DNA of 63,969 bases, counting the filler, from an uncultured Methanosarcinales archaeon (GTDB taxonomy: Archaea; Nanobdellota; Nanobdellia; Woesearchaeales; GW2011-AR9), in the NCBI GenBank assembly GCA_964434885.1. It is 5 parts of 5 records of this genome, joined end to end, with 100 filler letters (N's around TTAATTAATTAA, not from the genome) between each part and the next. Parts side by side here need not be neighbours in the genome. Positions count along the whole stretch, not along the records: positions 1 to 14,584 come from CAYSWQ010000019.1; 4 more parts are not named here. The stretch is one strand, 5' to 3'. The position numbers and the translations under genes are program-made. The notes below the pieces were generated by a model. That model ran no database searches, was not told the DNA's origin, and worked only from the letters and a program-made list of their open reading frames with translations. Shown here in pieces: positions 1 to 57,614 of the stretch. Position 1 is the stretch's first letter. Each line of letters opens with the position of its first letter.

Positions 1-2
1 CT

Positions 3-80
3 CCTGCTGAAGCACCTAAAGAAGAAGAGAAAAAAGAAGAACCTGTAGCTGAAGAAAAAACAGAGGAGAAAGGTGAATAA
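3..80 (+). CDS. 3' end of an upstream gene with an acidic/Lys tail, probably ribosomal protein S24e (partial)
   Basis: Open frame PAEAPKEEEKKEEPVAEEKTEEKGE* ends 2 nt before S27ae; S24e-S27ae is the usual archaeal order (context inference only). Confidence 0.5.
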   Translation, partial: PAEAPKEEEKKEEPVAEEKTEEKGE

Positions 81-82
81 AA

Positions 83-286
83 ATGGCTAAGAAAAAAGAC
101 ATCAAAGAAAGAAAGCCAAAAGAGAAAAAACCAGGTAAAAAGATGCATGAGTTATATGGTGTTTCTGGTAGCTCTATTGAAAGAAAAAATAAAAACTGTC
201 CTAAGTGTGGCAAAGGAACTTTCATGGGCAAACACAAAGACAGACATGTCTGTGGTAAGTGTAAGTATGTAGAATATTTAAATTAA
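83..286 (+). CDS. rps27ae: 30S ribosomal protein S27ae
   Basis: CPKCGKGTFMGKHKDRHVCGKC zinc-ribbon signature; upstream AGGTGA RBS. Confidence 0.95.
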   Translation: MAKKKDIKERKPKEKKPGKKMHELYGVSGSSIERKNKNCPKCGKGTFMGKHKDRHVCGKCKYVEYLN

Positions 287-369
287 TTTACTTCTTAATT
301 TTATTAATATTTCTTATTATGTTGTTTCTAGAAAAAAATTGTTTGAAAAAAAAGAAAAAAAAGAAAAAA

Positions 370-1677
370 CTAACCTTCTACTAATCGTAATAGTGCCTCT
401 TTCTCATTACCAGTAAACACTATGTTAGTAATATTAACATCCAATGTATTTGGATTCTTATATGGCACCCTATTAAAATAGAAAGTATAGTTCATTCCCC
501 GATAAAGCCATGGTGTTTCTGTTGAACCATCTAAGTTACTCAAATTAGTTCCTGTTAAATTAAGCTTTGCTCTATTAGCTTCCAATGAAGTAACATTAAA
601 TCCATACCATCCAACATCCATATAAGAAGTGTTGTTATTTCCCAAAGCTACATACATTTCTTGACTTTTTAATTGAGTTCCTCCTTGTACTACTGAAATT
701 TTTGATAAAGGCCATCTCCATAATTCATCTGAATTTCCTGTGGCAGGAGCTAGATTTTTAGAACCACACCAAGCATTATCATTTTTATACTGGATACAAA
801 CATCACCACATCCAGGACTCGCAGCAGTTCCTTTCTTAATATCTGTAGTTGTAGAACAATCTGCTAAAGTAGTTACCACTTGCATTTCAGGAGGATTTTT
901 TTTCAAACAAGTTTGTTTTGCTTTAAAAGTACATGTTGGCGCTTTCTGAACTGGTGCCGGAGCAGCAACTTTCTTCATCACACCCCAACTAAAAGGAGAT
1001 TCTGAAGGAACTACATCTCCTGCACAGTATACTTTATTGATGTCATTAATAAATCCTTTAGGACCAACTTTAAAATCTACAGCAACAATACCTTCTGTTT
1101 GTCCACAATCCCAAAATTTCTTTCCATTAGGTTCACCTGGTCTTTCATTAACTCCTTGATTTCCCCCACAGAAACCCAGAATCTGGTGCATCCTTAAATC
1201 ACTATTATAATTTCCTTGCAAACCAGTTAAAGGATCATTTCCACAATCAAAGTTAAAATTAGTTGTTCCTTTATTACTTACCATTCCAGATTTAGATCCT
1301 AAGTTACATCCCATTTGAAATTGACCAATTAACCTATAATTATGTTTACCAGCAAAACTCAAGGCAAATTCACTAGACGGACACACAGTAATATTATTCA
1401 TATACCCTCTTGCGTATTCTAAACAATTATCTTCACACTTCGTTCTTTTATTATCGTCCGTTATTGCTTCACAATTCTTATTTTGTGGTTCTGTACACAA
1501 TGTAAATTTGTCCCAACATCCTGGAGTTTGATCACAAGATTCCCAATCTTGAACAAAAATAGCCTTTCCTGCCAATGCTTTCTTACTTGTTTTAGAAGTT
1601 GTACTTTTCGAACACCCAACCAAAATCAAAGAAACAGCCAACAAACCTATTAACAAAAACATATACTTCTTTTTCAT
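370..1677 (-). CDS. Secreted Cys-rich lipoprotein of unknown function
   Basis: KKKY + hydrophobic stretch + LVGC lipobox; many Cys; GAGGTG RBS before ATG 1677. Confidence 0.7.
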   Translation of the reverse strand: MKKKYMFLLIGLLAVSLILVGCSKSTTSKTSKKALAGKAIFVQDWESCDQTPGCWDKFTLCTEPQNKNCEAITDDNKRTKCEDNCLEYARGYMNNITVCPSSEFALSFAGKHNYRLIGQFQMGCNLGSKSGMVSNKGTTNFNFDCGNDPLTGLQGNYNSDLRMHQILGFCGGNQGVNERPGEPNGKKFWDCGQTEGIVAVDFKVGPKGFINDINKVYCAGDVVPSESPFSWGVMKKVAAPAPVQKAPTCTFKAKQTCLKKNPPEMQVVTTLADCSTTTDIKKGTAASPGCGDVCIQYKNDNAWCGSKNLAPATGNSDELWRWPLSKISVVQGGTQLKSQEMYVALGNNNTSYMDVGWYGFNVTSLEANRAKLNLTGTNLSNLDGSTETPWLYRGMNYTFYFNRVPYKNPNTLDVNITNIVFTGNEKEALLRLVEG

Positions 1678-1846
1678 CTTATACACCTCTTAACAAATTA
1701 ACTATTTAAACGTTAAATTGTTTTTTTTTTTTGAATATCTTTTTCGTTTATAAATATTTGTTTTTTGAAAAATAAGTCTCTTAAATCATTAACAATAATA
1801 AAAAAATAACAATACATAAATATAACATAATTTTTCTAAAGAAAAT

Positions 1847-3088
1847 ATGAACAACAATTTCCTAAGAGTCAACGCAGACTTACATTTACATGGACTTTAT
1901 TCTATGGCTGTCAGTAAACAAATGCTTCCCAAAACAATTGGAGAACAAGCACCATCAAAAGGAATCCATTTATTAGGAACTGCAGATATCTTAAATCAAA
2001 AGTGGATTGATTTAGTAAAAGAACAATTAAATAAAATTGAAGAAGGAATCTATCAACACGAAAACAAAACTAAATTTATTTTACAAACAGAAATTGAAGA
2101 TGCCAATAGAGTTCATCAGCTAATTTACTTTCCTAGTTTTTCCAAAGTTGAAGAAATTAGAGAACAATTTGCAAAAAAATGTAAAAACTTAGATTCGGAT
2201 GGAAGACCAAAAATTTGGTTAACTGGAGAAGAAATCACAGAAATTTGTTCAGAAGCAGGTTGTTTAGTAGGTCCAGCCCATGCCTTTACTCCTTATTTTG
2301 GAATGTATGGTAAATTTAATTCTTACAAAGAATGTTATGGAGATCAATGGAATAAAATCCATTTCCTTGAACTAGGATTAAGTGCAGATACTTTAATGGC
2401 AGATCAAATTTCTGAATTACACAACCTTACTTTCTTAAGCAATTCAGATGCTCATTCTCCTTGGCCAAACAAAATGGGAAGAGAATTTAATACTTTCTTG
2501 ATGAAAGAAATATCTTTCCCAGAATTAAAATTAGCATTAAAAAGAGAAAAAGGAAGAAAATCAATTCTCAATGTGGGTTTTAATCCTTTAGAAGGAAAAT
2601 ATCACAAAACTAGATGTATTAGTTGTTTAACTTTCTTTGAACCAAAAGACGCAGCCAGTTTCAAATGGAAATGCCCCAGTTGTAGTAAATCAATCAAAAA
2701 AGGAGTTGATTTCAGAATTAGTGAATTAGCTGGAGTTGGTCCTAATATTCATCCAGATCACCGTCCAGAATACAAACACATTATGCCATTAAGTGAAATT
2801 ATTGCTTTAGCTTTAGGCATTAAAAACACTTGGTCACAAGGAGTACAAAAAGAATGGTTAAAGTTTGTCAAAAGATTTAGTAATGAAATTAATGTTTTAT
2901 TAAGAACTGATTATGAGAAATTAGAAGAAATTAATCCCAAAGTTGCCGAATATGTACAATATTTTAGAGAAGGGAAAATAAAATATGTTCCTGGTGGTGG
3001 CGGTGTTTATGGTCAATTAGTTCCTCCAGGAAAAGCAGTTGAAATCAAAGAATTTAAAGAAAAACAAATGAGTTTAGGTGAATTTTAA
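1847..3088 (+). CDS. endoQ: Endonuclease Q family PHP-domain protein
   Basis: DLHLHGLYS, AHAFTP, ELGLSAD, SNSDAHSP, GKYH..RC..C and PGGGGVYG motifs. Confidence 0.88.
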   Translation: MNNNFLRVNADLHLHGLYSMAVSKQMLPKTIGEQAPSKGIHLLGTADILNQKWIDLVKEQLNKIEEGIYQHENKTKFILQTEIEDANRVHQLIYFPSFSKVEEIREQFAKKCKNLDSDGRPKIWLTGEEITEICSEAGCLVGPAHAFTPYFGMYGKFNSYKECYGDQWNKIHFLELGLSADTLMADQISELHNLTFLSNSDAHSPWPNKMGREFNTFLMKEISFPELKLALKREKGRKSILNVGFNPLEGKYHKTRCISCLTFFEPKDAASFKWKCPSCSKSIKKGVDFRISELAGVGPNIHPDHRPEYKHIMPLSEIIALALGIKNTWSQGVQKEWLKFVKRFSNEINVLLRTDYEKLEEINPKVAEYVQYFREGKIKYVPGGGGVYGQLVPPGKAVEIKEFKEKQMSLGEF

Positions 3089-3561
3089 CTATAATTTCTA
3101 TCTACATAAGTTCTTAACTTTGCTTTTATATTGAACATATGGGTACTAACTGTGCCTTCAGTAACACCAATCTTACTTCCTATTTCTTTGTATGTATATC
3201 CTTCTAAAAAAAGACCAACCACTTCTTGATGTCTTTTTGTTAATTTTTGATATCCTTTCCTCAAAAATTTTAATTGTTCATCATTCAATACTTTTTCTTC
3301 AGGTAAACTTTCAGAATTGAAACAAACCTCTTCTTTAAATTTATATTTTTTTCTCAAATTTTTATTAATCGTACTTCTAAGAATTCTGTAAAACCAAGTA
3401 TTTATATGTGATCTTCCTTGAAATTTTGCATATCCTTCTACTACTGCTAATAAAAAATCCTGTTGAACATCTTCTCTATCTGCAGGATTTTCAATAAAAC
3501 TAGCTACAACTGAAGTTAATTTAGGAAGATAATTTTTTATTTTATTTTCTAATTGAGACAT
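3085..3561 (-). CDS. Bacterial-type ECF sigma-70 factor-like protein
   Basis: Region 2 (EDVQQD...FQGRSHINTWFYRI) and region 4 HTH (LTKRHQEVVGL..EGYTYKEIGSKIGVTEGTVSTH). Confidence 0.85.
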   Translation of the reverse strand: MSQLENKIKNYLPKLTSVVASFIENPADREDVQQDFLLAVVEGYAKFQGRSHINTWFYRILRSTINKNLRKKYKFKEEVCFNSESLPEEKVLNDEQLKFLRKGYQKLTKRHQEVVGLFLEGYTYKEIGSKIGVTEGTVSTHMFNIKAKLRTYVDRNYS

Positions 3562-3637
3562 ATTTAATCAAAAAAACAGCTATTTTATAATTATTTACCA
3601 TAAAAATATATAAAACCAAACCATTTTCTCATTAATC

Positions 3638-5386
3638 ATGAAAGCACAAGAACTAAAAAAGAAATATTTGGAATTTTTCAAAAGTAAAGGGCATGCTATA
3701 ATTGAGTCAGCACCTTTAGTTCCAGAAAATGATCCTACTGTTTTATTCACTACTGCTGGCATGCATCCACTAGTACCTTTTATCATGGGTGCACCACATC
3801 CATTAGGAAGAAGAGTAACCGATGTTCAAAAATGTTTACGAACTCAAGATATTGATGAAGTTGGTGATATTTCCCATACTACTTTTTTTGAAATGCTTGG
3901 TAATTGGAGTTTTGGAGAGTATTGGAAAAAAGAAGCAATCGAATACAGTTTTGAATTTTTAACAAAGGTTTTAAAGTTACCATTATCTCATTTAGCTTTT
4001 ACTTGTTTTAAAGGAGACAAAGATTGTCCTAAAGATGAAGAATCTGCTAAATATTGGTTAGATTTAGGAGTAAACAAAAATAGAATTGCCTTTCTAGGAA
4101 AAGAAGATAATTGGTGGGGTCCACCTGGAGAAACAGGACCTTGTGGACCAGATACTGAAATGTTTTATTGGATAGGAAAAGAAAATCCACCAGAGAGATT
4201 TGATCCAGAAAATGATAATTGGTTGGAAATTTGGAATGATGTGTTTATTCAATATGATAAAACCAAATCTGGAGAATACAAACCACTAACACAAAGAACT
4301 GTTGATACAGGTATGGGGTTAGAAAGGGTTGCTGCAGTTTTACAAGGAAAGAAAACAGTTTTTGACACAGAATTATTCCAACCAATTTTTAATGAAATTT
4401 CAAAATTAAGCAAAACAGAACCAGATGAAAAGAACATCATTTCTTACCGAATCATTGCTGACCATATGCGAGCTTCAGTATTCCTTTTAGGAGATGGTGT
4501 AATTCCTAGTAATCTAGACCAAGGTTATGTCTTACGTAGATTTATTAGAAGATCAATTCGACAATTAAAAAAATTAGGAATGCCAATTGAAAAAATTGAC
4601 TTAACTTCTTTAGTTAAATTAATTGTTAAGATGTATGAAGAAGAGTATTCTGTCTTAGATGAGAAAAAAGAATTAATTCTAGAAGAATTACAAAAAGAAC
4701 AAGAAAAATTCACAAAAACCTTAGAAAAAGGGTTAAACAAATTTTCTCGAATATCTTCTGGAAATATTTCTGGTGTGGATGCTTTTCTATTGTTTCAATC
4801 ATATGGTTTTCCGATTGAGATGACTCAAGAATTAGCTGCAGAAAAAGGAATTAAAGTTGATGTTAAAGGTTTTGAAACAGAATTTGAAAAACACCAACAA
4901 CTTTCTCGAGTTGGAGCAGAACAGAAATTTAAAGGCGGATTATCTGATGCTTCTGAAGAAACCACAAAATTACATACTGCTACCCATTTATTGAATGAAG
5001 CTTTGAAAAAAGTCTTAGGTAAAGATGTTCGTCAAAGAGGAAGCAATATCACTGCCAAAAGATTAAGATTTGACTTTAACTTTGATCGGAAATTGACTGA
5101 TGAAGAGAAAAAAGCTGTTGAAGAAGAAGTGAATAAACAAATTGAAGCAGGTTTAGAAATAATTAAAGAAGAAATGGATCGCGATGAAGCTTTGAAAGTT
5201 GCCCATGGTGAATTTGGAGCTAAATATCCAGATCGAGTTTCTGTCTATACTATTGGAAAAGACTACAGCAAAGAAATCTGCATGGGACCACATGTCAACA
5301 ATACAAAAGAACTAGGTCATTTCAAAATCAAAAAAGAACAATCTAGTTCTGCTGGTGTGAGAAGAATCAAAGCTGTTTTGGAGTGA
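3638..5386 (+). CDS. alaS: Alanine--tRNA ligase, short form lacking C-Ala
   Basis: LFTTAGM, QKCLR, FFEMLGNWSFG, DTGMGLER; editing HTATH and CMGPH; ends at GVRRIKAV. Confidence 0.96.
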   Translation: MKAQELKKKYLEFFKSKGHAIIESAPLVPENDPTVLFTTAGMHPLVPFIMGAPHPLGRRVTDVQKCLRTQDIDEVGDISHTTFFEMLGNWSFGEYWKKEAIEYSFEFLTKVLKLPLSHLAFTCFKGDKDCPKDEESAKYWLDLGVNKNRIAFLGKEDNWWGPPGETGPCGPDTEMFYWIGKENPPERFDPENDNWLEIWNDVFIQYDKTKSGEYKPLTQRTVDTGMGLERVAAVLQGKKTVFDTELFQPIFNEISKLSKTEPDEKNIISYRIIADHMRASVFLLGDGVIPSNLDQGYVLRRFIRRSIRQLKKLGMPIEKIDLTSLVKLIVKMYEEEYSVLDEKKELILEELQKEQEKFTKTLEKGLNKFSRISSGNISGVDAFLLFQSYGFPIEMTQELAAEKGIKVDVKGFETEFEKHQQLSRVGAEQKFKGGLSDASEETTKLHTATHLLNEALKKVLGKDVRQRGSNITAKRLRFDFNFDRKLTDEEKKAVEEEVNKQIEAGLEIIKEEMDRDEALKVAHGEFGAKYPDRVSVYTIGKDYSKEICMGPHVNNTKELGHFKIKKEQSSSAGVRRIKAVLE

Positions 5387-5389
5387 ACA

Positions 5390-5815
5390 ATGGAAAAAAG
5401 ATTAGCTTTAATGATATTTTATAATGATCGAAATAAAATTCTTCTTCAAGATAGATCAAATATGAGTAAATGGGGTGAAGATTGGGGTTATTTTGGTGGA
5501 GCAATTGATGGAGATGAAACCCCTAAAAAAGCAATTATTAGAGAAATTCAAGAAGAATTAAAATTTGAAATTAATTCTTTTGATTATTTGGGAAAATATG
5601 AAAAACCAGGAAAACCATTAAAAAACCCATCAATTGAAATAAATGTTATTCAAGAAGTATTTGTTTCTAAAATTAATAAAAAAGAGTTTGATTCAATGGT
5701 TTTACATGAAGGAGCAGGAATGAAATGGTTTTCCGTTAAAGAAGCTATGGTATTAAATATGTATCCTTTAGATCCACAAATATTAGTTGATTTTGAAAGA
5801 AAATATAGTAATTAA
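5390..5815 (+). CDS. NUDIX hydrolase
   Basis: Nudix box GGAIDGDETPKKAIIREIQEEL. Confidence 0.9.
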   Translation: MEKRLALMIFYNDRNKILLQDRSNMSKWGEDWGYFGGAIDGDETPKKAIIREIQEELKFEINSFDYLGKYEKPGKPLKNPSIEINVIQEVFVSKINKKEFDSMVLHEGAGMKWFSVKEAMVLNMYPLDPQILVDFERKYSN

Positions 5816-5859
5816 AAAAAATAAATTCAATTCTCAAACCAAAACATTTATATAATATA

Positions 5860-5895
5860 TTATACATTTGTATAAAAAAACAAACAATTGTATAA
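5860..5895. promoter_or_regulatory. Putative autoregulatory operator of the MNT-HEPN operon
   Basis: Palindrome TTATACA-TT-TGTATAA (5860-5875) plus degenerate copy AAACAATTGTATAA (5882-5895), between a TTTATATA box and the ATG of an HTH-bearing antitoxin. Confidence 0.55.
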
Positions 5896-5896
5896 A

Positions 5897-6424
5897 ATGG
5901 TAGACAATAAAGAAAAGATTTTAAAGAAGTTATTTGAAAAACCAGAATATAAATTTCATATCAGGGAATTAGCTAGAGAAACTAAGCTTAACCCAAATAC
6001 AATAATCAACCTTACAAAAGAATTAGTTAAAGAAAAAATCATCATCAAAAAAAGAAATAAGAACATAGTTGAAATTTATTGTGATTTAGACTCCAAAAAT
6101 TACAAAAGAAAAAAACAACTATACAATATCTCTTCAATCAATAATTCAGGCCTGCTTGATTATTTAGTAGATTTTTATAATCATCCGCAAGCAATTATCC
6201 TCTTTGGTAGTTTTTTAAGAGGAGAAGATTTTTCTGGAGGAGATATAGATATTGCTGTAATCTCTACTAATAAAAAAGAATCAGATTTAATTAAATTTGA
6301 AAAAAAATTAAAAAGAAAAATTCATTTATTATCTTTCACTTACAAAGAAATCTCAGATGAATTTTACACTAATTTAATAAATGGATTTGTTTTATATGGT
6401 TATCTAAAATATGAAAGAGTTTGA
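5897..6424 (+). CDS. HTH + minimal nucleotidyltransferase (MNT) antitoxin
   Basis: N-terminal wHTH (FHIRELARETKLNPNT); LFGSFLRGEDFSGGDIDIA = GS-x10-DxD. Confidence 0.85.
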   Translation: MVDNKEKILKKLFEKPEYKFHIRELARETKLNPNTIINLTKELVKEKIIIKKRNKNIVEIYCDLDSKNYKRKKQLYNISSINNSGLLDYLVDFYNHPQAIILFGSFLRGEDFSGGDIDIAVISTNKKESDLIKFEKKLKRKIHLLSFTYKEISDEFYTNLINGFVLYGYLKYERV

Positions 6425-6842
6425 TAAATTTATAGAAGAAAGAAAAGTTAAAAGAATTTCAATAGATCAAGAATTAGCAAATTCTTTAATTAAAAATGTA
6501 GAAATAAGAGAAAAAAGCATTTCCAAATTACAATCTGAAGAATTTCCTATGTTGGTTTTTGAAAACTTTTATGATTGTTTAAGAGAACTATTAGATGCTC
6601 TTTTGGCGTTATCTGGCTACAAATCATATTCACATGAAGCACCAATAATCTATTTGAAAACATATCAATTACCCGAGAATATAATTTTTGAGCTTAATCG
6701 ATACAGAAAGAAAAGAAATAATTCAAAATATTATGGCAAAATGCCAACTGCTGAAGAAGCAGAAGAAATAAAATCTTTTTATATAAAAACAAAACCTAAA
6801 CTATTTGAAATTATTGATTCAAGGAGGAACAAAAATGAATGA
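6411..6842 (+). CDS. HEPN-domain toxin, partner of MNT
   Basis: Overlaps the MNT gene; helical; SHEA and RNNSKYYG (R-x4-Y variant of the HEPN motif). Confidence 0.75.
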   Translation: MKEFDKFIEERKVKRISIDQELANSLIKNVEIREKSISKLQSEEFPMLVFENFYDCLRELLDALLALSGYKSYSHEAPIIYLKTYQLPENIIFELNRYRKKRNNSKYYGKMPTAEEAEEIKSFYIKTKPKLFEIIDSRRNKNE

Positions 6843-7740
6843 TACAATTATTATTGGAGCTGGTATCGCTGGATTAACAGCTGCCATATACGCATCAAGA
6901 AAAAAAATGGAATACAAAATCCTCTCTTCAGATTTTGGTGGACAATTTATGGTCAGTGGAGAAGTTTTAAATTACCCAGGGATTGTCAAAACCACAGGCA
7001 TAGAATTCTCTAACACCATGGAAGAACAAATGAAATTTAATGATGTTAAGGTTTTAACTGAAACAGTCAAAGAAGTAAAAAAGATAAAAAACCAATTCAA
7101 AGTAATCACCAATAAAAACACTTACGAAACCAAATCCGTCATTATCACTACTGGTTCCCATCCTAGAAAACTAAATGTACCTGGAGAAAATAAATTTGAA
7201 AAGAAAGGAGTAACTTATTGTTCAATTTGTGATGGACCATTATTTTCTGGAATGGATGTAGCCATTATTGGGGGAGGAAGTTCAGCTTTAGAAGCAGTAG
7301 ATTTTCTAAAAGATATTGCCACCAAAATATACTTGGTTGTACGTGGTGATAAATTAACTGGCCACGAATATTTAATTGAAAAAGTAAAAAACAACAATAA
7401 AGTTGAAATTCTATTTAATACTAATACTAAAGAAATTCTTGGAGATAGTTTAGTAACTGGAATAAAAATAGAACAAAACAACAAAGAAAAAGAATTAGCT
7501 GTAAAAGGGGCAATTATTGAAATCGGCAGAATTCCAAACACAGAATCATTCAAGAATTTAGTTGAATTAGATGAAGATCAACATATCCAAGTTGATTGTC
7601 AAGGTCAAACTAATGTTCCTGGAATCTTTGCTGCCGGAGATTGTGCTTCCGGCCATGAATATCAATACATTATTTCTGCTGGACAAGGTTGTATGGCTTT
7701 ATTAAAAGCAGCTCGATATTTAGCCAATTTGAAAGATTAA
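6835..7740 (+). CDS. trxB: Thioredoxin reductase-like FAD oxidoreductase
   Basis: GAGIAG, CSICDG active site, GGGSSA, FAAGD; AGGAGG RBS before ATG 6835. Confidence 0.92.
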   Translation: MNDTIIIGAGIAGLTAAIYASRKKMEYKILSSDFGGQFMVSGEVLNYPGIVKTTGIEFSNTMEEQMKFNDVKVLTETVKEVKKIKNQFKVITNKNTYETKSVIITTGSHPRKLNVPGENKFEKKGVTYCSICDGPLFSGMDVAIIGGGSSALEAVDFLKDIATKIYLVVRGDKLTGHEYLIEKVKNNNKVEILFNTNTKEILGDSLVTGIKIEQNNKEKELAVKGAIIEIGRIPNTESFKNLVELDEDQHIQVDCQGQTNVPGIFAAGDCASGHEYQYIISAGQGCMALLKAARYLANLKD

Positions 7741-7770
7741 TTTTATAAACAATAAACCTTTTATTCAACT

Positions 7771-7956
7771 ATGAATAAATGTCCTAAATGTGGATCAAAA
7801 GATGTAGAAATAATAGATGAAGATGGATCTATTAAATGTAAACATTGTGATTTCGATGAATTAGAAGATAGTTTTCCTCAAGAAAGAAACACCCAAAGAG
7901 AAAAAGCCAACTTCAATCCATATAAAAGTGGCGGAACTAGAAGAGGAAAAAAGTGA
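7771..7956 (+). CDS. Small zinc-ribbon protein
   Basis: CPKC...CKHC; overlaps the nfo start. Confidence 0.7.
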   Translation: MNKCPKCGSKDVEIIDEDGSIKCKHCDFDELEDSFPQERNTQREKANFNPYKSGGTRRGKK

Positions 7957-8783
7957 ATAAACTTTTCTTTGGAACTGCAGGTATTCCAATTTCTACTCCC
8001 AACCGCAACACAATCAATGGAGTTTCTTATGTTAGAAAGTTAAATTTAGATTGTATGGAGTTGGAATTTGTCCGTTCCATTAATATTTCTAAAGAAAAAG
8101 CTCCTGAAATAAAAGAAGCTGCCAAAAAAAACAACATTCATCTTACTTGTCATGCCCCTTATTTCATTAATTTAAACTCAGATAAACCTCAAATTATTGG
8201 GGCAAGCAGACAACGAATTATCAACTCAGCCAAAATAGCTAATCTTTGTGGAGCGAAATCAGTAACATTTCATGCTGCTTATTATTTAAAACAAGATCCA
8301 GAAAAAGTATATCTTCAAGTCAAAGAACAAATTAAAAAAATATTAGCAATCTTAAAAGATGAAAGTAACAAAATAATGATTCGCCCAGAAACCACTGGTA
8401 AAGCAACCCAATGGGGAGGTGTCAATGAAATAGTGAAATTATCAACAGAATTAGAACAAGTGCAACCTTGTATTGATTTCGCCCATTTATACGCCAGAAG
8501 TATTGGTAAAATAAATAGTTATGATACTTTCAAAGAAATTTTAGAACATGTAGAAAAACATCTGGGAACAGAAGGGTTACACAATATGCACATTCATATG
8601 TCTGGAATCTTTCATGGACCAAAAGGGGAAAGACATCATCTAACTTTAAAAGAATCTGAATTTAATTATCTAGCTGTCTTAAAAACATTAAAAGAATTCA
8701 ACTGCAAAGGAATAGTGATCTCTGAATCACCAAATATCGAAAAAGATGCTTTGCTAATGCAAAAAGAATATCAAAAAATTTAA
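7953..8783 (+). CDS. nfo: Endonuclease IV-like AP endonuclease (TIM barrel)
   Basis: HAPYFINL, PETTGK, CIDFAH, HIHMSG, ISESP. Confidence 0.88.
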   Translation: MNKLFFGTAGIPISTPNRNTINGVSYVRKLNLDCMELEFVRSINISKEKAPEIKEAAKKNNIHLTCHAPYFINLNSDKPQIIGASRQRIINSAKIANLCGAKSVTFHAAYYLKQDPEKVYLQVKEQIKKILAILKDESNKIMIRPETTGKATQWGGVNEIVKLSTELEQVQPCIDFAHLYARSIGKINSYDTFKEILEHVEKHLGTEGLHNMHIHMSGIFHGPKGERHHLTLKESEFNYLAVLKTLKEFNCKGIVISESPNIEKDALLMQKEYQKI

Positions 8784-8869
8784 ATTACCGATACATTTAA
8801 ATTTAAAGACTATTTACTTTAACTATTAGATTAAATAATATTAAATTGATTATCAAAAAAAGAGGTGTT

Positions 8870-10261
8870 ATGATGGCTGAAAAAAAATCCACTAATGAAA
8901 AATTACAAGAAAAAATATTTATGAAAAAAAAGAGTGCCTGGTTAACTTATTCAAAAAATAAAGTTTTTGACTTTTGTGAAGATTACAAAAATTTTCTAGC
9001 TAAAAATAAAACTGAAAGACTTTGTGTTCAATATTTAATCAAAAATTTAGAAAAAAAGAAATTCAAAGAAATTTCTCAAGTTAAAAAAATAAAACCGGGA
9101 GATAAAGTTTACAAGAATATCAAAAATAAAGCAGTAATTGCTGCTATCATTGGAAAAGACAAATCATTTAATCTGGTTGGTAGTCATCTTGATTCTCCAA
9201 GATTAGATCTAAAACCAAACCCTATCTATGAAGATAGTAATTTAGCTTTGATGCAAACTCATTATTATGGTGGAATCAAAAAATATCATTGGGTTAATAC
9301 CCCTTTAGAATTACATGGTATAATTTTCACCAAAAATAAAAAAATAAATTTATCTATTGGAAGTGGAAAAAATGAACCCAAATTCATGATTCCTGACTTG
9401 CTTCCTCATTTAGCAAAGAAACAAATGGAAAGAAAAGGAAACCAAGTGATAGAAGGTGAAGAATTAAACATCTTAGTTGGTAATATTCCAGTTGATGACG
9501 CTAAAATTAAAGACCAAATAAAATTTACAGTAATGAAAGAATTAAATAAAAAATATGGAATCACTGAAGAAGATTTTGTTTGTGCTGAATTAGAACTTGT
9601 CCCTTATGGTGAACCAGTTGATGTTGGTTTAGATCGAGGATTAATTGGTGCTTATGGTCAAGATGACAAAGTTTGTGCTTATACATCACTACAAGCATTC
9701 TTAAAACTAAATAAACCAAAAACTACAGCCGTAGCAATGTTTGCTGATAAAGAAGAAATTGGTTCTATGGGAGATACAGGTGCTAGCAGTTTTATGTTGA
9801 ATAGTTTTACCAAGGAAATTATTAACAAAGCTGGATGGAAAACAAACTCTTTACTATTGCTGGAAAAATCAAAAGCAGTTTCTGCTGATGTTACTGCTGG
9901 AATGAATCCAAGTTACAAAGATGTTAATGATCCTAGCAATGTTTCTTATTTGGGAAAAGGAGTTTCTATAGAAAAATATGGTGGAGGAGGAGGGAAATAT
10001 TCTACTCACGATGCTAGTGCTGAATACATGGCAGAAATTAGAAATATCTTAGATAAAGAAAAAATCCCTTGGCAAACTGGAGAATTAGGAAAGATTGATT
10101 TGGGAGGTGGAGGAACTATTGCCATGTTTTTATCCAGATATGGAATGGATTGTTTGGATGCTGGTCCTTGTGTATTGGGAATGCATTCTCCATATGAAGT
10201 AACTTCCAAAGTAGATGTTTATTCCTCTTATCTATTTTACAAAGCATTTTGGGAAACTTAA
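8870..10261 (+). CDS. M18 family aminopeptidase
   Basis: SHLDSPRLDLKP, YGQDD, DKEEIGS, SADV, GMHSP. Confidence 0.92.
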   Translation: MMAEKKSTNEKLQEKIFMKKKSAWLTYSKNKVFDFCEDYKNFLAKNKTERLCVQYLIKNLEKKKFKEISQVKKIKPGDKVYKNIKNKAVIAAIIGKDKSFNLVGSHLDSPRLDLKPNPIYEDSNLALMQTHYYGGIKKYHWVNTPLELHGIIFTKNKKINLSIGSGKNEPKFMIPDLLPHLAKKQMERKGNQVIEGEELNILVGNIPVDDAKIKDQIKFTVMKELNKKYGITEEDFVCAELELVPYGEPVDVGLDRGLIGAYGQDDKVCAYTSLQAFLKLNKPKTTAVAMFADKEEIGSMGDTGASSFMLNSFTKEIINKAGWKTNSLLLLEKSKAVSADVTAGMNPSYKDVNDPSNVSYLGKGVSIEKYGGGGGKYSTHDASAEYMAEIRNILDKEKIPWQTGELGKIDLGGGGTIAMFLSRYGMDCLDAGPCVLGMHSPYEVTSKVDVYSSYLFYKAFWET

Positions 10262-10340
10262 TCTATCTACTCCAATATATAAATCTTTAAAAGAAAGATA
10301 ACAAAAAAACAAAACAGAAAAATTTAACGAGGTATTTAAA

Positions 10341-10628
10341 ATGGGAGAAGAAAGCGAATGTGGATGTTGTTGTGGTCATGATGAACCAGCTTCAGAAGAA
10401 AACAAATGTGGTCCTGAAGAAGTATGTACTCCAGAAGGAGAATGTGTTCCAAAAGAAGAAGCTAAATCTGGTCCAGATATGATTAGAGATATCTTGAACT
10501 TTGTTGCTGTTAAAAAAGAAGAAGAAAAACAGGACGTTACTACCTGTATTGATCCAGAAACAGCAGATAAATTAGCTTGTATGTTGGAAGAATTAGTTAA
10601 AAAAGCAGCTGAATGTTGCGACAAATAA
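10341..10628 (+). CDS. Small acidic Cys-rich protein, possibly metal-binding
   Basis: GAGGT RBS; CGCCCGH N-terminus; 11 Cys in 95 aa. Confidence 0.7.
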   Translation: MGEESECGCCCGHDEPASEENKCGPEEVCTPEGECVPKEEAKSGPDMIRDILNFVAVKKEEEKQDVTTCIDPETADKLACMLEELVKKAAECCDK

Positions 10629-10648
10629 TTTTATTTTAATTTCTTTTT

Positions 10649-11056
10649 TTATTGATATCCAATTGTTGTGTTTTCTAAAGAATTACCATAAACAGAAGCC
10701 ACATGAGGTAATTTATACAAATTATTTATGGGTCTTAATTTGTAATCATTTGATGCTTTTTTAGGTAGCAAATAATTACTACTAAATTTATCATCCAAAG
10801 TAAAACTTTTCTTATTTGAATACAAATTAGAAAATTTACCTCCTGGCTTCATATCTAATTGAGCAACTTGATTATTCATTAATCTTTTCATATACTCAGG
10901 TTTAGCAGCTGGAAGAGGAACATATCTAGCTTGCATTGCGTACAATTTCATTATTGCTCCTCTTTCGTGAGCAACTCCTGGATCGCTTTCTTTAACACTT
11001 TTGACATAATTTCTTATTGATGTCATCTCTAAAGTAGCGCTTAAATCATTTTCCAT
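10649..11056 (-). CDS. Hypothetical protein
   Basis: 135-aa ORF with no recognisable motif. Confidence 0.6.
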   Translation of the reverse strand: MENDLSATLEMTSIRNYVKSVKESDPGVAHERGAIMKLYAMQARYVPLPAAKPEYMKRLMNNQVAQLDMKPGGKFSNLYSNKKSFTLDDKFSSNYLLPKKASNDYKLRPINNLYKLPHVASVYGNSLENTTIGYQ

Positions 11057-11141
11057 TTTAGTGAGACTTTCTAGTTTTTATTATCTATAGAAAGACATTT
11101 TGATATAAAACTATTTCGGAAAAAGTGAGACAAAAAAATCA

Positions 11142-11825
11142 TTAAGAAAAAGTGTTTATTTCTCTCCAAATATCAATTTTCTTCAAATTTTTTGGTTGAT
11201 TTGTTCCAATCAATTCAATCCATTTTGAAAAATTATTATGTCCATTAAGATCTAAAAGATTAATTATGTTATAACCTTTTATTAAACGAGAATCATTAAC
11301 TTTATAATCAAAAGTTTTAGCTACCTTAAAACCATTCTCTTCCAAAATATTAGAAATATCTTCCATTAATGATCTACTTTTTGAACAACCCGTGATTATT
11401 GGATAATGGCCTTTTCTTAATTTAAAAGAAAAGTCAGTGTCAGATACTCCCTTAATAAAAGAAAACAATAATTTTTTGTCATTATAGAAAATTTTTGGAA
11501 CTCTAAGATTGTTTTTGGGACTTTTTGTTAATCCGACATCATTCAAAAGAAAGTTGACTAAATTTTTTGACCAAATATTAATTCCATAAATTCTATTTGT
11601 ACTCATTAATTTTGGTGATACATCAATGTTAAAAAGTTTTTTAAAAAGAGGAGCTACAACAGAATCATAAAATTCTTTTTCATCTTTTGGATTCCCTCCG
11701 CAATTAACAAGATATTCGTACTTTGCTTCTCTAATACCTATATGTCCATCTCCAACTAATACACCACATAGATAAGCCAACTCTTCATTTATTTCAGGAA
11801 TATTTATTTTCTTTAATGTGCTCAT
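11142..11825 (-). CDS. Free-standing two-motif LAGLIDADG endonuclease (LAG1)
   Basis: LAYLCGVLVGDG and FIKGVSDTDFS motifs; no intein splice residues; ATG at 11825. Confidence 0.85.
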   Translation of the reverse strand: MSTLKKINIPEINEELAYLCGVLVGDGHIGIREAKYEYLVNCGGNPKDEKEFYDSVVAPLFKKLFNIDVSPKLMSTNRIYGINIWSKNLVNFLLNDVGLTKSPKNNLRVPKIFYNDKKLLFSFIKGVSDTDFSFKLRKGHYPIITGCSKSRSLMEDISNILEENGFKVAKTFDYKVNDSRLIKGYNIINLLDLNGHNNFSKWIELIGTNQPKNLKKIDIWREINTFS

Positions 11826-11878
11826 TTTTATTAAAAAAATACTTCTTTTTCTCAAAAATAAAATAAATAGAAAAAATA

Positions 11879-11915
11879 TATAAATTCTACCTGGACTTGT
11901 CTACTTGTCCACTAC
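11879..11915 (-). promoter_or_regulatory. Shared promoter element, copy 1 (GGACAAGT-RGACAAGT repeat followed by TATA box)
   Basis: GTAGTGGACAAGTAGACAAGTCCAGGTAGAATTTATA; 32/37 identical to 23154-23190. Confidence 0.7.
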
Positions 11916-11927
11916 TCAATAAGTAAG

Positions 11928-11950
11928 AAAAAGGAAGGAAAAATCCTTCC
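11928..11950 (-). terminator. Hairpin plus U-tract after the initiator tRNA
   Basis: GGAAGGA-(4)-TCCTTCC followed by TTTTT on the minus strand. Confidence 0.55.
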
Positions 11951-11956
11951 AAATTA

Positions 11957-12059
11957 TAGCGGAGAGTGGATTTGAACCACTGATCTTTACCCGAAAAACA
12001 CATTGTGATTTTCTCCGGGTTATGGGCCCGGCAAGGACTCCAAACTCCTCCACTCCGCT
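11957..12059 (-). tRNA. Initiator tRNA-Met(CAU) with 28-nt intron at 43/44 (11987-12014)
   Basis: A1-U72, AGCGGAG/CTCCGCT acceptor, CCGGG/CCCGG anticodon stem, TTCAAAT T-loop; splice motif ACCC-GG^A...GGGT-AA^A. Confidence 0.92.
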
Positions 12060-12158
12060 GTAACACTTAAAGAATTACACTCATTTATAAAAGTTCTTGT
12101 AAAAATTAACTCATTAGAATCAATAACATTTATATAATCAAAACATTTAATATTTCAA

Positions 12159-13094
12159 ATGGCAAAAAAGAGGAGCAATAAAAAAGTAGTTTCTAAACGC
12201 AGTAAAACAAAAAAAATTGTATTATTAATTTTAGCTTTAATTGTATCTATCTTCTTTATCATCCCTTTATTCTTCAGTTTATTTAATGGGACCAAATTGG
12301 GCAATGTTGCTTTAATCTCTGTAAATGGTGTAATCATGGGAGGGGATGGTGGAGGCTCGTTAGGACAAACTATTGCTTCTTCAAAAACAATTGTTAGTTT
12401 TCTAGAAGATGCCGAAAAAAGAACCAATGTTAAAGCCATTCTTTTAGAAATAAATTCTCCAGGTGGAGGAGCAGTTGCTTCTGATGAAATAGCTTCTCAA
12501 ATAAAATCAATGAAAAAACCAGTGGTTTCAGTAATTAGAGAAGTTGGAGCTTCCGGAGGTTATTGGATTGCTTCAGCAACAGATCATGTTATTGCTAATC
12601 GTATGTCTATCACTGGTAGTATCGGAGTAATTAGTTCTTATTTAGAATTTAGTGAATTAATGAAAGAATATGGTGTTGGTTATGAAAGATTAATTGCTGG
12701 TAAATACAAAGATGTCGGAACACCATTTAGAAAATTAGAAGTTGAAGAAAAACAATTATTACAAGGAAAAATTGACAAAATTCATGATTTCTTTATCAAA
12801 GAGATTTCAGCTAACAGAAAATTGAAAGAAAGTGAAGTTAAAAAAGTAGCAACTGGAGAATTCTTTTTAGGAGTAGAAGCAAAAAATTTAGGTTTAGTTG
12901 ATGAACTAGGAAATAAGAAAACTGCTGAAAACTACTTAAAAAAGAAACTAGCATTAAAAGAAATCAATTATGTTAAATACGAAACTAAAAAAAGTTTGTT
13001 ATCTTCTTTAATGGGAGTTATCTCCCAAAACTTCTTTAAGATTGGAGAAGGAATTGGTTCTGGTTTGGTTAAAAACCAAATCTCTTGGATTTAA
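12159..13094 (+). CDS. sppA: Signal peptide peptidase SppA (S49)
   Basis: N-terminal TM; INSPGG, ASGGYWIA, TGSIGV, GKYKD. Confidence 0.93.
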   Translation: MAKKRSNKKVVSKRSKTKKIVLLILALIVSIFFIIPLFFSLFNGTKLGNVALISVNGVIMGGDGGGSLGQTIASSKTIVSFLEDAEKRTNVKAILLEINSPGGGAVASDEIASQIKSMKKPVVSVIREVGASGGYWIASATDHVIANRMSITGSIGVISSYLEFSELMKEYGVGYERLIAGKYKDVGTPFRKLEVEEKQLLQGKIDKIHDFFIKEISANRKLKESEVKKVATGEFFLGVEAKNLGLVDELGNKKTAENYLKKKLALKEINYVKYETKKSLLSSLMGVISQNFFKIGEGIGSGLVKNQISWI

Positions 13095-13133
13095 ATACAT
13101 AACTTATTTAAACTAAAATTCTAAATCAATTTT

Positions 13134-13499
13134 ATGATTCAAGAATACAATAAATTAGTCAGAGACAAAATCCCAGAAATTATTCGGGCAGATAATAAAA
13201 CACCTTACACACACAAAGTTTCAGGATCTGAATTAGAAGATGCTTTACAAAAAAAATTAACAGAAGAAATTAGAGAATTTCGAAAATCTAGAACTATGGA
13301 AGAATTAGCAGATATTTTAGAAGTTGTAGAAGCATTAATTCAAATTAATCACGAATATATGCCAGAAAGAACAAGAGTATATAGTATAGCTAATAACTAC
13401 AATATAACAAAAATGGAATTAGAATCAATCAGAGCAAATAAAGCAAAAGAAAGAGGTACTTTTTCTCAAGGAATAATTCTAGAATATGTAGAATATTAA
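13134..13499 (+). CDS. MazG-like NTP pyrophosphohydrolase
   Basis: YNKLVRDKIPEII, KLTEE, EELADILEV, KAKERGTF. Confidence 0.85.
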   Translation: MIQEYNKLVRDKIPEIIRADNKTPYTHKVSGSELEDALQKKLTEEIREFRKSRTMEELADILEVVEALIQINHEYMPERTRVYSIANNYNITKMELESIRANKAKERGTFSQGIILEYVEY

Positions 13500-14584: not shown

Positions 14585-14684
14585 NNNNNNNNNNNNNNNN
14601 NNNNNNNNNNNNNNNNNNNNNNNNNNNNTTAATTAATTAANNNNNNNNNNNNNNNNNNNNNNNNNNNNNNNNNNNNNNNNNNNN
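14585..14684. other. Artificial contig spacer
   Basis: N44-TTAATTAATTAA-N44. Confidence 0.98.
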
Positions 14685-29027: not shown

Positions 29028-29127
29028 NNNNNNNNNNNNNNNNNNNNNNNNNNNNNNNNNNNNNNNNNNNNTTAATTAATTAANNNNNNNNNNNNNNNNN
29101 NNNNNNNNNNNNNNNNNNNNNNNNNNN
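29028..29127. other. Artificial contig spacer
   Basis: N44-TTAATTAATTAA-N44. Confidence 0.98.
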
Positions 29128-39544: not shown

Positions 39545-39629
39545 GCCCCTGTGGCTTAGTGGTATAGCGCGACCTTGGTAATATCCAACAAACAGGTCGA
39601 GGTCCCGAGTTCAACTCTCGGCAGGGGCT
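39545..39629 (+). tRNA. tRNA-Thr(GGU) with 13-nt canonical 37/38 intron (39581-39593)
   Basis: GCCCCTG/CAGGGGC acceptor, CGACC/GGTCG anticodon stem, CCGAG-TTCAACT-CTCGG T arm. Confidence 0.92.
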
Positions 39630-43305: not shown

Positions 43306-43405
43306 NNNNNNNNNNNNNNNNNNNNNNNNNNNNNNNNNNNNNNNNNNNNTTAATTAATTAANNNNNNNNNNNNNNNNNNNNNNNNNNNNNNNNNNNNNNN
43401 NNNNN
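43306..43405. other. Artificial contig spacer
   Basis: N44-TTAATTAATTAA-N44. Confidence 0.98.
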
Positions 43406-57514: not shown

Positions 57515-57614
57515 NNNNNNNNNNNNNNNNNNNNNNNNNNNNNNNNNNNNNNNNNNNNTTAATTAATTAANNNNNNNNNNNNNNNNNNNNNNNNNNNNNN
57601 NNNNNNNNNNNNNN
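57515..57614. other. Artificial contig spacer
   Basis: N44-TTAATTAATTAA-N44. Confidence 0.98.

Follow-up and report, generated by a model that had tools for sequence, protein, structure and literature searches.

Within the genome of a small marine DPANN archaeon lies an intact sigma-70 family gene of the bacterial ECF type (group 4). Bacterial initiation is defined by sigma factors, whereas archaea use TBP, TFB and TFE. The gene lies in a 63,969-nt stretch of DNA (the window), which consists of five contigs joined by N spacers, C19 (positions 1-14584), C20, C21, C22 and C53. The slot between endoQ and alaS is variable, and here the gene occupies it alone, as an accessory insert. Upstream of its ATG lies an archaeal TATA box, at the distance that is canonical for leaderless mRNAs in this genome. 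Our preferred reading, held with a confidence somewhat short of even, is that the encoded protein may be a fast-evolving transcription regulator that works inside the archaeon after horizontal gain. The features on which the analysis rests are collected in Table 1.

Table 1. Features of the window, with positions counted along its whole length.
Feature	Position	Strand	Remarks
Ribosomal protein S27ae	83..286	plus	Archaeal/eukaryotic marker, contig C19; Pfam Ribosomal_S27 2.7e-17
EndoQ-like TIGR00375 gene (endoQ)	1847..3088	plus	Convergent with the sigma gene; TIGR00375 335.1 bits, cut-off 326.6
ECF-type sigma-70 family gene	3085..3561	minus	ATG start, 158 aa, stop codon included
Sigma4 helix-turn-helix domain, residues 105-150	3112..3249	minus	YKEIGSKIGVTEGTVSTHMFNIKAKL; Pfam
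Sigma2/sigma4 linker, residues 73-104	3250..3345	minus	Helix end, coil 83-88, helix start
Sigma2 domain, residues 9-72	3346..3537	minus	Motifs DREDVQQDF and FQGRSHINTWFYRI; Pfam Sigma70_r2 8.1e-11
TATA-like box of the sigma gene	3590-3583	minus	TTATAAAA; motif start -29 from ATG; 21 nt between motif and ATG; leaderless-type
TATA-like box of alaS	3608..3614	plus	ATATAAA; start at -30
alaS (short, bacterial-type)	3638..5386	plus	Divergent from the sigma gene; PRK01584 807.8 bits
tRNA	39545-39629		Contig C21; Rfam; only tRNA in the window; insertion of about 13 nt in the anticodon loop

Domain architecture and predicted fold

The matches of the 158-residue protein to sigma models lie far beyond chance. 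In Pfam, Sigma70_r2 scored 42 bits over residues 9-72 (cut-off 24), and a six-frame profile search placed the same domain at C19:3346-3537. Residues 105-150 matched Sigma70_r4 (1.8e-08, 34.2 bits, cut-off 24.1), with further matches of the protein to Sigma70_r4_2 (1.7e-08, 34.4 bits, cut-off 25.7) and Sigma70_ECF (2.2e-04, 21.6 bits, cut-off 21.1), and the whole protein matched the NCBIfam model TIGR02937 (sigma70-ECF) at 2.5e-24, with 85.8 bits against a cut-off of 42.9. The cut-offs of specific ECF subfamily or equivalog models in NCBIfam were not reached, and Pfam gave no match to Sigma70_r3 or r1. The build is that of a two-domain protein in which sigma2 and sigma4 are joined by a 32-residue linker, with seven helices in the AF2 model. 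Additionally, region 2 could be aligned to SigH of M. tuberculosis and SigR of S. coelicolor. The sigma4 half also matched GerE (9.3e-10), over residues 106-151 only, and sigma2 fills the N-terminal half.

The AF2 model reached a pLDDT of 91.6, a confidence that owes part of its height to bacterial homologues in the alignment. In the linker region the model predicts helices at residues 53-82 and 89-105 with a coil between them, and pLDDT falls to 62 at residues 81-90. When the model was compared with the PDB by Foldseek, the top 13 listed matches were all ECF sigma chains (SigH, SigE, RpoE, AlgU and SigW), with E-values from 6.5e-06; TM-scores were just 0.4-0.5 because the sigma2 and sigma4 domains differ in their mutual orientation. 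The recognition helix of sigma4, as read from the sequence, has few arginines; in ECF factors that read a -35 element this helix typically bears them. The first-pass annotation had seen motifs of sigma regions 2 and 4, had named a search with Sigma70_r2 and Sigma70_r4_2 among its checks, and had given the lack of an HMM or structure match as grounds for refutation. Matches of both kinds exist, and Pfam, TIGR02937 and Foldseek agree on the assignment.

Genomic context and the variable slot

The stop codon of the sigma gene (complement of 3085-3087) shares bases with the endoQ TAA at 3086-3088, and the gene is divergent from alaS, as had been described. S27ae is indeed encoded on the sigma gene's own contig, C19. 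A tRNA with a BHB intron had been placed on that contig as well, and here the argument from a shared contig fails because the tRNA of the window, found with Rfam, lies on C21; ARAGORN gave no tRNA in the window. The absence of an adjacent anti-sigma gene held, since the sigma gene stands alone, with endoQ convergent on one side and alaS divergent on the other, and zf-HC2, an anti-sigma domain, had no match anywhere in the genome at E <= 0.1. A co-transcribed anti-sigma partner is frequent among ECF sigmas, though not universal.

The order S27ae-endoQ-alaS is common to two other archaeal genomes, G024 and G560, and S27ae-endoQ is also found in a third, G008. Orthologues of endoQ, at 73-80% identity, occur in 5 of the 113 other genomes of the family, and relatives of endoQ and alaS carry the names Woesearchaeota archaeon or Nanoarchaeota archaeon. 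The slot after endoQ varies in what it holds. In G024 a 90-nt spacer leads directly to alaS and no sigma gene is present; G560 has a PIN_2 toxin gene (1.9e-31) and a 75-aa ORF; and G546 and G547 each have an uncharacterised convergent gene, of 403 or 374 aa. Around the insert, inspection for mobile-element ends gave just short AT-rich chance repeats, and no giant surface-protein gene or palindrome array stands beside the sigma gene.

Contigs from public runs of two studies cover the locus without a single difference, X5 record 21 over 2777-3367 and X1 record 6 over 3096-3748. Furthermore, the sigma, EndoQ and AlaS proteins have one common longest contig on record, of 26193 nt. A chimeric join around the gene, raised earlier as a concern, was not seen: synteny at the flanks is archaeal and the run contigs bridge both junctions.

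Promoter and base composition

The promoter motif TTATAAA of the sigma gene starts at -29, which is the genome-wide peak position. Of the 638 long ORFs in the genome, 162 have such a motif starting at -32 to -28, whereas six control windows of 5 nt gave 8-26. The sequence that had been noticed upstream of the ATG is present, with 21 nt between the two. The 80 nt upstream of the gene hold this TATA box and, by inspection for the motif rather than by a formal ECF promoter model, no GAAC, the usual ECF -35 core; an ECF-type promoter of its own, of the kind that serves autoregulation, was not seen there. GC3 is 0.12, at the 0.3rd percentile of the genome, so that the gene is compositionally atypical; its codon usage is otherwise like that of the rest of the genome.

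Transcription machinery of the host

The genome encodes both TBP and TFB. A bacterial alpha C-terminal domain was not found in this genome, which is 92% complete, and the RNAP largest subunit has one archaeal-type locus, with no second RNAP large subunit found in the genome. Together these results bear out the earlier view of an archaeal host with TBP/TFB initiation. In each of 30 other genomes of the order (30/30) the largest subunit likewise has exactly one locus, and the clamp coiled-coil segment is almost invariant across 29 genomes of the order. We also predicted a complex of the sigma protein with the first 340 residues of RpoA' from G024, which was used as a stand-in because the N-terminus of RpoA' in the studied genome (G000) is unassembled, the gap falling between the ends of contigs C59 and C24. 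The prediction gave an ipSAE of 0.00 in two runs, which speaks neither for nor against binding.

Relatives, divergence and donor

A word search of 5.8 billion clustered proteins returned the sigma protein itself only, and among 1.84 billion representatives nothing exceeded 37% identity to it. No orthologue was found in the 113 other genomes of the family or in 400 other genomes of the class, where the best score was 55 bits against 287 for the protein with itself. The nearest named sequences are ECF sigmas of Bacteroidota, at 30% identity or less, and the closest clusters in the ESM Atlas are also Bacteroidota ECFs. Among genome contigs, matches that spanned most of the protein had 22-33% identity, and short ones confined to sigma4 had up to 50%; their sources were Bacteroidota and others. 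An exact 40-nt search of metagenome contigs gave 0 matches, and no related locus was found in metagenome contigs or viral contigs.

The sole near relative is a protein designated P0004, identical by BLASTP at 57 of 162 positions (35%). Identity between the two is distributed unevenly, at 21/47 in the sigma2 core, 19/46 in sigma4 and 4/32 in the linker, and the sigma2 signature (D..DVQQDF; F.G.S...TW.YR) is kept in both despite 65% overall divergence. Homologues of EndoQ (87%) and AlaS (82%) are tied to P0004 by an equal longest ENA contig of 6817 nt, a co-location that depends solely on the equality of these figures. If so, we infer that divergence of the sigma gene has run about eight times as fast as that of its flanks, which could equally mean relaxed constraint. 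In a tree of 84 ECF-like proteins, which took in the 45 best of 78 named bacterial loci and 17 of the 150 listed representatives and from which a long-form sigma (L139) was dropped, the only resolved grouping was that of the studied protein with P0004, at an SH-aLRT of 92, and 46 of 81 inner branches were open. The tree and the searches name no donor for the gene.

Several candidate connections were set aside. The highest-ranking HMMER matches include giant proteins (P0002, P0003 and others) whose scores come from 6-9 repeats of a LuxR-type HTH unit. Since their single-unit scores fall below those of ECF proteins, they are not relatives of interest; the one giant protein examined, P0002, is rich in Ala, Arg and Gly. 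A phage origin was rejected as unsupported, the closest phage record being just 31% identical. A link to a defence system was rejected too, since PADLOC matched nothing beyond the HTH of a CARF protein.

Sigma genes elsewhere in the order and in the same genome

TIGR02937 scores above its cut-off in 64 of 151 genomes of the order, a tally that takes in the unpublished G135, G144 and G155; one of the 64 is a closed one-contig genome. In the sister genus g177, ECF-like orthologues have a dN/dS of 0.18, a value that belongs to the g177 genes and not to the gene studied here. Their contigs also bear TruD and the mainly archaeal HTH_10 family. One g177 orthologue, L213, is unlike the others at its C-terminal end, possibly through a frameshift. 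Elsewhere in the order, some bins contain short sigma matches on contigs of 50-64% GC, which may be mis-binned. The studied genome itself has a second sigma gene, on contig C38, whose product has 415 aa and regions 2, 3 and 4.

Comparison with known systems

Castelle et al. described sigma-70 genes of DPANN archaea in 2021 as fam00359 (Front Microbiol, PMC8204110), and the present gene therefore adds to an already reported gene type. In Tables S3 and S6 of that paper, fam00359 is primary-sigma-like (KEGG K03086), with a median of 280 aa, and is present in 39% of 196 Woesearchaeota; the ECF form is represented in Table S6 by a single KEGG label, K03088, on a Pacearchaeota ORF. As with the fam00359 sigmas described there, the studied gene sits in a Woesearchaeota-type DPANN genome, with TBP and TFB alongside and no anti-sigma, and archaeal genes encoded together with it exclude mis-binning. 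Archaeal informative genes were found on its contig, as seen from S27ae, the synteny and the Woesearchaeota or Nanoarchaeota names of the flank relatives. In contrast to fam00359 as tabulated, it is of the two-domain ECF form with 158 aa, and the C38 gene of the same genome fits that family better.

The protein shares the sigma2-linker-sigma4 layout, the signature motifs and the fold with bacterial ECF sigmas such as SigH (6kop, 5zx2), E. coli sigmaE (1or7, 6jbq), P. aeruginosa AlgU, B. subtilis SigW and the ECFs of about 160 aa in Bacteroidota. Unlike them, it belongs to a genome with no detected bacterial core RNAP, has no anti-sigma and is preceded by an archaeal TATA promoter. Its C-terminal domain matches GerE as well as sigma region 4, which it has in common with sigma4-like and LuxR/GerE-type HTH regulators, and as in stand-alone HTH regulators this domain could bind double-stranded DNA alone. 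In contrast to LuxR/GerE regulators, however, the protein has a full sigma2 domain with conserved motifs and no receiver or ligand-binding N-terminal domain, so that its HTH does not stand alone. Phage sigmas (PHROG 1740; phrog_1740 scored 83.8 bits) and the defence-associated MzaA are likewise members of the sigma-70 family in accessory or mobile genes. The studied protein differs from the phage sigmas in that no phage record exceeds 31% identity and no viral contig relative was found, and the likeness to MzaA is that of the long sigma of the genome and not of the ECF gene.

Discussion

In the reading that we prefer, the gene would have been gained by horizontal transfer from an ECF-bearing donor and, as we infer, would already have been in place before this organism split from its closest sampled relative. 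The protein would act within the archaeon as a sequence-specific transcription regulator, contacting DNA through the sigma4 helix-turn-helix and possibly through sigma2 too. It would modulate the TBP/TFB-dependent transcription of a small accessory regulon, and the archaeal initiation factors would not be replaced. The repurposed DNA-binding regulator that the first-pass annotation had offered as one option is a plausible candidate.

The retained sigma2 motifs suggest that more than the helix-turn-helix matters, and a true RNAP-binding sigma-like factor would fit them at least as well. In such a factor sigma2 would sit on the clamp coiled-coil of Rpo1 (A'), the homologue of the bacterial beta' clamp helices, and sigma2 and sigma4 together would guide or modulate initiation at certain promoters. 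The modelled linker agrees with the head-helix, coil, tail-helix pattern given for ECF linkers by Fang et al. 2019 (PMC6648896). The conservation of the sigma2 signature in the protein and P0004 across 65% divergence, the near-invariant coiled-coil in the 29 genomes of the order, the retention of sigma-70 homologues by many order and family members whose only RNAP is archaeal and the low dN/dS of the g177 orthologues also argue for this possibility. We nevertheless regard it as rather unlikely, since the cell has a complete TBP/TFB system, the recognition helix is poor in arginine beside those of ECF -35 readers, and the gene occupies an accessory slot as a singleton specific to its lineage. 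Moreover, the partner of sigma4 in bacteria is the beta flap-tip helix, which is not known to have a counterpart in archaeal RNAP. A stronger form of the proposal, which we consider decidedly improbable, is that the ECF-type sigma, like the primary-like sigmas spread through the order, has been functionally integrated into archaeal transcription, with its conserved sigma2 surface on the Rpo1 clamp coiled-coil and a private promoter set; its extreme divergence from P0004, set against 82-87% identity at the flanks, would then be the mark of diversifying selection acting on an accessory regulon, such as one that serves host or virus interaction.

That the gene is a functionless passenger, horizontally gained, intact by chance and drifting to loss, is unlikely, though the protein is a singleton, its slot is filled by other accessory genes in relatives, it diverges about eight times as much as its flanks, its GC3 is in the lowest percentile and the g177 orthologue L213 is altered C-terminally. 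Against drift stand 158 intact codons in a genome where AT-rich drift easily makes stops, a TATA box exactly at the genome-preferred position, the concentration of the identity with P0004 in the functional cores rather than evenly, and a fold predicted with high confidence, if with the help of bacterial homologues. The second option of the first-pass annotation, an effector sent into a bacterial partner or prey to hijack its core RNAP, found no support and is very improbable. The protein does retain all the hallmarks for binding a bacterial core, and no such core was found in the genome itself, but its N-terminus opens with the first sigma2 helix, with no signal peptide or secretion motif by eye, no secretion or contact-apparatus genes lie beside it, no bacterial host of the lineage is evident in the present data, and the gene is not conserved in relatives. 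Finally, the genome is a metagenome bin of 66 contigs, the window is a concatenation, and possibly mis-binned high-GC contigs occur in other bins of the order, all of which might suggest that a bacterial fragment entered an archaeal bin through mis-assembly or mis-binning. This reading is effectively refuted by S27ae on the same contig, flanking synteny shared by three or four other archaeal genomes, error-free run contigs from two studies across both junctions, a TATA box at the archaeal position, codon usage of the genome's own kind and a CheckM-type contamination of 0.

Why many DPANN genomes keep intact sigma genes is a puzzle, published in 2021 without a mechanism. The present case adds an ECF two-domain form besides the primary-like form, both in one genome. 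It also adds an accessory-type gene that lies in a variable slot and yet has a canonical archaeal promoter, and signature residues of sigma2 and sigma4 that are kept amid very fast divergence. If the protein is only a DNA-binding regulator or a passenger, it would represent ordinary bacterial gene flow into DPANN archaea. If its sigma domain were shown to work with the archaeal polymerase, the view of how the two transcription systems are separated would change.

Identity and fold of the sigma protein

The gene on contig C19 between endoQ and alaS is real and correctly recognised as a sigma factor, as the first-pass annotation had called it. The HMM search which that annotation proposed matched Sigma70_r2 to residues 9-72 of the protein (8.1e-11) and Sigma70_r4_2 together with Sigma70_r4 to residues 105-150 (~1.7e-08) in Pfam, where GerE (9.3e-10) and, more weakly, Sigma70_ECF (2.2e-04) also matched. 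In NCBIfam the protein scored 85.8 bits against TIGR02937 (sigma70-ECF; cut-off 42.9) and reached none of the specific ECF subfamily cut-offs. Solved structures matched by the sequence were M. tuberculosis SigH, S. coelicolor SigR region 2, AlgU, sigmaE and SigW. An AlphaFold2 model built from 118 aligned sequences has seven helices and a mean pLDDT of 91.6, with a dip at residues 81-90, and its top Foldseek matches in the PDB are structures of ECF sigmas bound in a holoenzyme or to an anti-sigma factor.

Features of the window and of related loci (positions without a locus prefix count along the whole stretch, except for C38)
Feature	Position	Strand	Contig	Remark
Contig C19	1-14584			followed by C20, C21, C22, C53
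S27ae	83-286		C19	ribosomal protein
Cys-rich ORF	370-1686	-	C19	438 aa
endoQ	1847-3088	+	C19	EndoQ-like, TIGR00375
Sigma gene	3085-3561	-	C19	158 aa
alaS	3638-5386	+	C19	582 aa
Nucleotidyltransferase	5888-6424	+	C19	Polbeta/NTP_transf_2
Partner	6411-6842	+	C19	143 aa; overlaps preceding gene
tRNA	39545-39629	+	C21	only tRNA; ~13-nt insertion in anticodon loop
Joins	14585-14684, 29028-29127, 43306-43405, 57515-57614			N runs around TTAATTAATTAA linker
Second sigma gene	3176-4423 (L001:961-2208)		C38	415 aa; outside window
Slot after endoQ, G560	L210:2791-3488			PIN_2 toxin gene and 75-aa ORF
Slot after endoQ, G546 and G547	L209:2752-3963; L211:365-1489			unknown convergent gene, 403 or 374 aa
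g177 cassettes	L212, L215, L216, L218			GT2 beyond ~360-aa ORF in two loci

Archaeal host and soundness of the contig

The window consists of five contigs from one genome bin (1.07 Mb, 66 contigs, 92% complete, 0% contamination) with N spacers between them, and is not a single contig, so that arguments from a shared contig are invalid across the joins. Thus, of the two genes said to share a contig with the sigma gene, S27ae does, and the tRNA does not. The insertion in that tRNA (Rfam 56.4 bits; missed by ARAGORN) is likely an intron.

The host of the sigma gene is archaeal. The genome, G000, encodes both TBP and TFB, no bacterial alpha C-terminal domain was found in it, and where relatives of the flanking endoQ-like and alaS proteins carry a name, it is 'Candidatus Woesearchaeota archaeon' or 'Nanoarchaeota archaeon'. 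The largest RNAP subunit is encoded at a single locus in G000; 30 other order genomes also have exactly one such locus apiece. In G000 the assembly breaks rpoA' in its N-terminal part, with residues 1-40 at the end of C59, those from ~260 onward at the end of C24, and the N-terminal part of the clamp missing. The alaS product is of the short bacterial type (PRK01584, 807.8 bits; archaeal model TIGR03683 only 260, cut-off 744.7), and its named close relatives are from Woesearchaeota or Nanoarchaeota.

Synteny supports C19 as genuine. S27ae, endoQ (75% identity) and alaS (61%) occur in the same order in G024, from another genus of the family, and likewise in G560 (endoQ 73%; alaS 73% across the 210 N-terminal residues that the retrieved locus includes); G008 has S27ae, then endoQ (80%), then the contig end. 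Contigs from marine or seawater metagenome runs of two studies, one of the runs possibly the source of the assembly itself, bridge both junctions of the sigma gene with 0 differences (X5 record 21, 2777-3367; X1 record 6, 3096-3748). In the database records, the longest contig listed for the sigma, endoQ and alaS proteins is the same one, of 26193 nt. A chimeric join, an outcome set beforehand as a refutation, was not seen. Archaeal flanks, synteny and bridged junctions together make such a join or mis-binning very unlikely. Contigs from X5 and X6 match alaS from 3648 onward, with unrelated sequence before it, and may represent a strain or relative whose endoQ-alaS slot is filled differently.

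Promoter and accessory slot

Among ORFs of at least 200 aa in G000, a TATA-like 7-mer starts at -32 to -28 from the ATG in 162 of 638, against 8-26 in six control 5-nt windows; such a peak marks archaeal promoters that drive leaderless mRNAs. With TTATAAA at -29, the sigma gene is equipped for transcription by the archaeal machinery. Corresponding motifs start at -30 in the divergent alaS (ATATAAA) and at -29 in the other sigma gene of G000 (TTATATA). GAAC, the usual ECF -35 core, is absent from the 80 nt upstream of the sigma gene.

The stop codons of the sigma gene and endoQ overlap, in agreement with the first-pass annotation. In G024 only 90 nt separate endoQ from alaS, with no sigma gene and no trace of one by tblastn, and in G560 (PIN_2, 1.9e-31), G546 and G547 other genes follow endoQ, so the sigma gene fills a variable slot, a small hot spot for accessory genes. 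Just 5 of 113 other family genomes carry endoQ itself. The insert is not bounded by repeats. The composition of the sigma gene is of the genome's own kind (codon likelihood in the 97.8th percentile), yet extreme, with GC of 0.264 (2.9th percentile) and GC3 of 0.12 (0.3rd percentile).

The S27ae-endoQ interval is a second variable slot. It holds only 110 nt in G008, other genes in G024, and in G000 a Cys-rich ORF whose N-terminus (…LVGCSKS) resembles that of a lipoprotein and which neither Pfam nor PADLOC matched. Downstream of alaS, the nucleotidyltransferase and its partner together match A (3.8e-16) and B (3.2e-06), the two genes of PDC-M05, a candidate defence system in PADLOC.

Relatives of the sigma protein

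The sigma protein is a singleton. A word-indexed search of 5.8 billion clusters returned only the protein itself, and a search of 113 further genomes of the family and 400 of the class revealed no orthologue (best score 55 bits; self 287). An exhaustive HMMER search of 1.84 billion representatives gave 10098 hits at E <= 0.001 and only 114 at E <= 1e-10. Named genome matches were mostly Bacteroidota ECFs (22-33% identity), Atlas neighbours were Bacteroidota ECF clusters, and phage records reached at most 31%. By summed score the HMMER list is headed by P0002, P0003, P0008, P0023 and P0024, giants of 2854-5190 aa with 6-9 repeated LuxR-type HTH units; P0002, the single example inspected, has a composition dominated by Ala, Arg and Gly. 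We rejected these as unrelated to the sigma question, their scores being summed over repeats.

The best full-length hit was P0004 (171 aa, E 4.7e-21), identical at 57 of 162 positions (35%) by BLASTP, and in a tree of 84 sequences only its pairing with the query was resolved (SH-aLRT 92). P0004 is on record from ENA (3 contigs, longest 6817 nt) and shares its source and longest contig with the best endoQ homologue, P0174 (87% identity), and with P0296 (82%, 3 contigs), one of the two best alaS homologues. P0004 thus probably belongs to the closest sampled relative, which, judging from these shared contig records, would carry endoQ, sigma and alaS together; the sigma protein would then be about eight times more diverged than its neighbours.

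Sigma genes elsewhere in the order

TIGR02937 exceeded its cut-off in 64 of 151 order genomes and matched at E <= 1e-5 in 88, tallies that take in the unpublished G135, G144 and G155; a closed one-contig genome is among those with a match. The long form, with regions 2, 3 and 4, predominates among these genes and is also that of the second sigma gene of G000. The best NCBIfam matches of the latter, RpoD/SigA (214 bits) and the defence-associated anti-phage MzaA (207.8), are both below cut-off, and its relatives, found in 20 of 30 other family genomes, share only 24-42% identity with it. The gene on its 5' side encodes a membrane protein with a DUF7343/MarR winged helix, and on its 3' side a 321-aa open frame runs to the locus end.

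Short ECF-like genes are sporadic, occurring in 14 of 113 other family genomes (E <= 1e-6) and 9 of 400 other class genomes (E <= 1e-8). Some of those in other bins, on contigs with a GC content of 50-64%, may be cases of mis-binning. Genus g177 of this family has clearly resident copies: in four species the gene overlaps a downstream Methyltransf_3 O-methyltransferase gene, followed by a ~360-aa unknown ORF, on contigs that also carry TruD or HTH_10, and one orthologue pair has a dN/dS of 0.18. The g177 orthologue at L213 deviates at its C-terminal end, possibly through a frameshift.

Discussion

Castelle et al. 2021 (PMC8204110), in their treatment of these genes, report sigma-70 genes (fam00359, K03086, median 280 aa) in 39% of 196 Woesearchaeota, 38% of 90 Pacearchaeota and 38% of 37 Aenigmarchaeota, and rule out mis-binning. 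They found no anti-sigma factors and left the mechanism open; the ECF label K03088 occurs once only in their Table S6, on a Pacearchaeota ORF. Among the papers listed by our full-text literature search, none was a functional study of archaeal sigma homologues.

We infer that the sigma gene was acquired horizontally. It would be expressed as a leaderless mRNA, and its product would act inside the archaeon as a sequence-specific transcription regulator through its sigma4 domain and perhaps also sigma2, with TBP and TFB keeping their role. That the gene is instead a passenger drifting in its slot we consider unlikely. Residues common to the query and P0004 cluster in the sigma2 core (21 of 47) and in sigma4 (19 of 46), not in the linker (4 of 32). 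A true RNAP-contacting factor, docked on the clamp coiled-coil, is likewise unlikely; the near invariance of this element in the order speaks for it, and in bacteria sigma2 binds at the clamp coiled-coil (Fang et al. 2019, PMC6648896).

The effector against bacterial RNAP that the first-pass annotation raised, acting on a bacterial partner, we regard as remote, and an artefact, given the bridged junctions, as remoter still. The regulator is our preferred reading. The sigma gene exemplifies a phenomenon already described in 2021 and adds some new local detail. Our results establish its identity, archaeal residence, archaeal promoter, accessory status, fast divergence and retained motifs.
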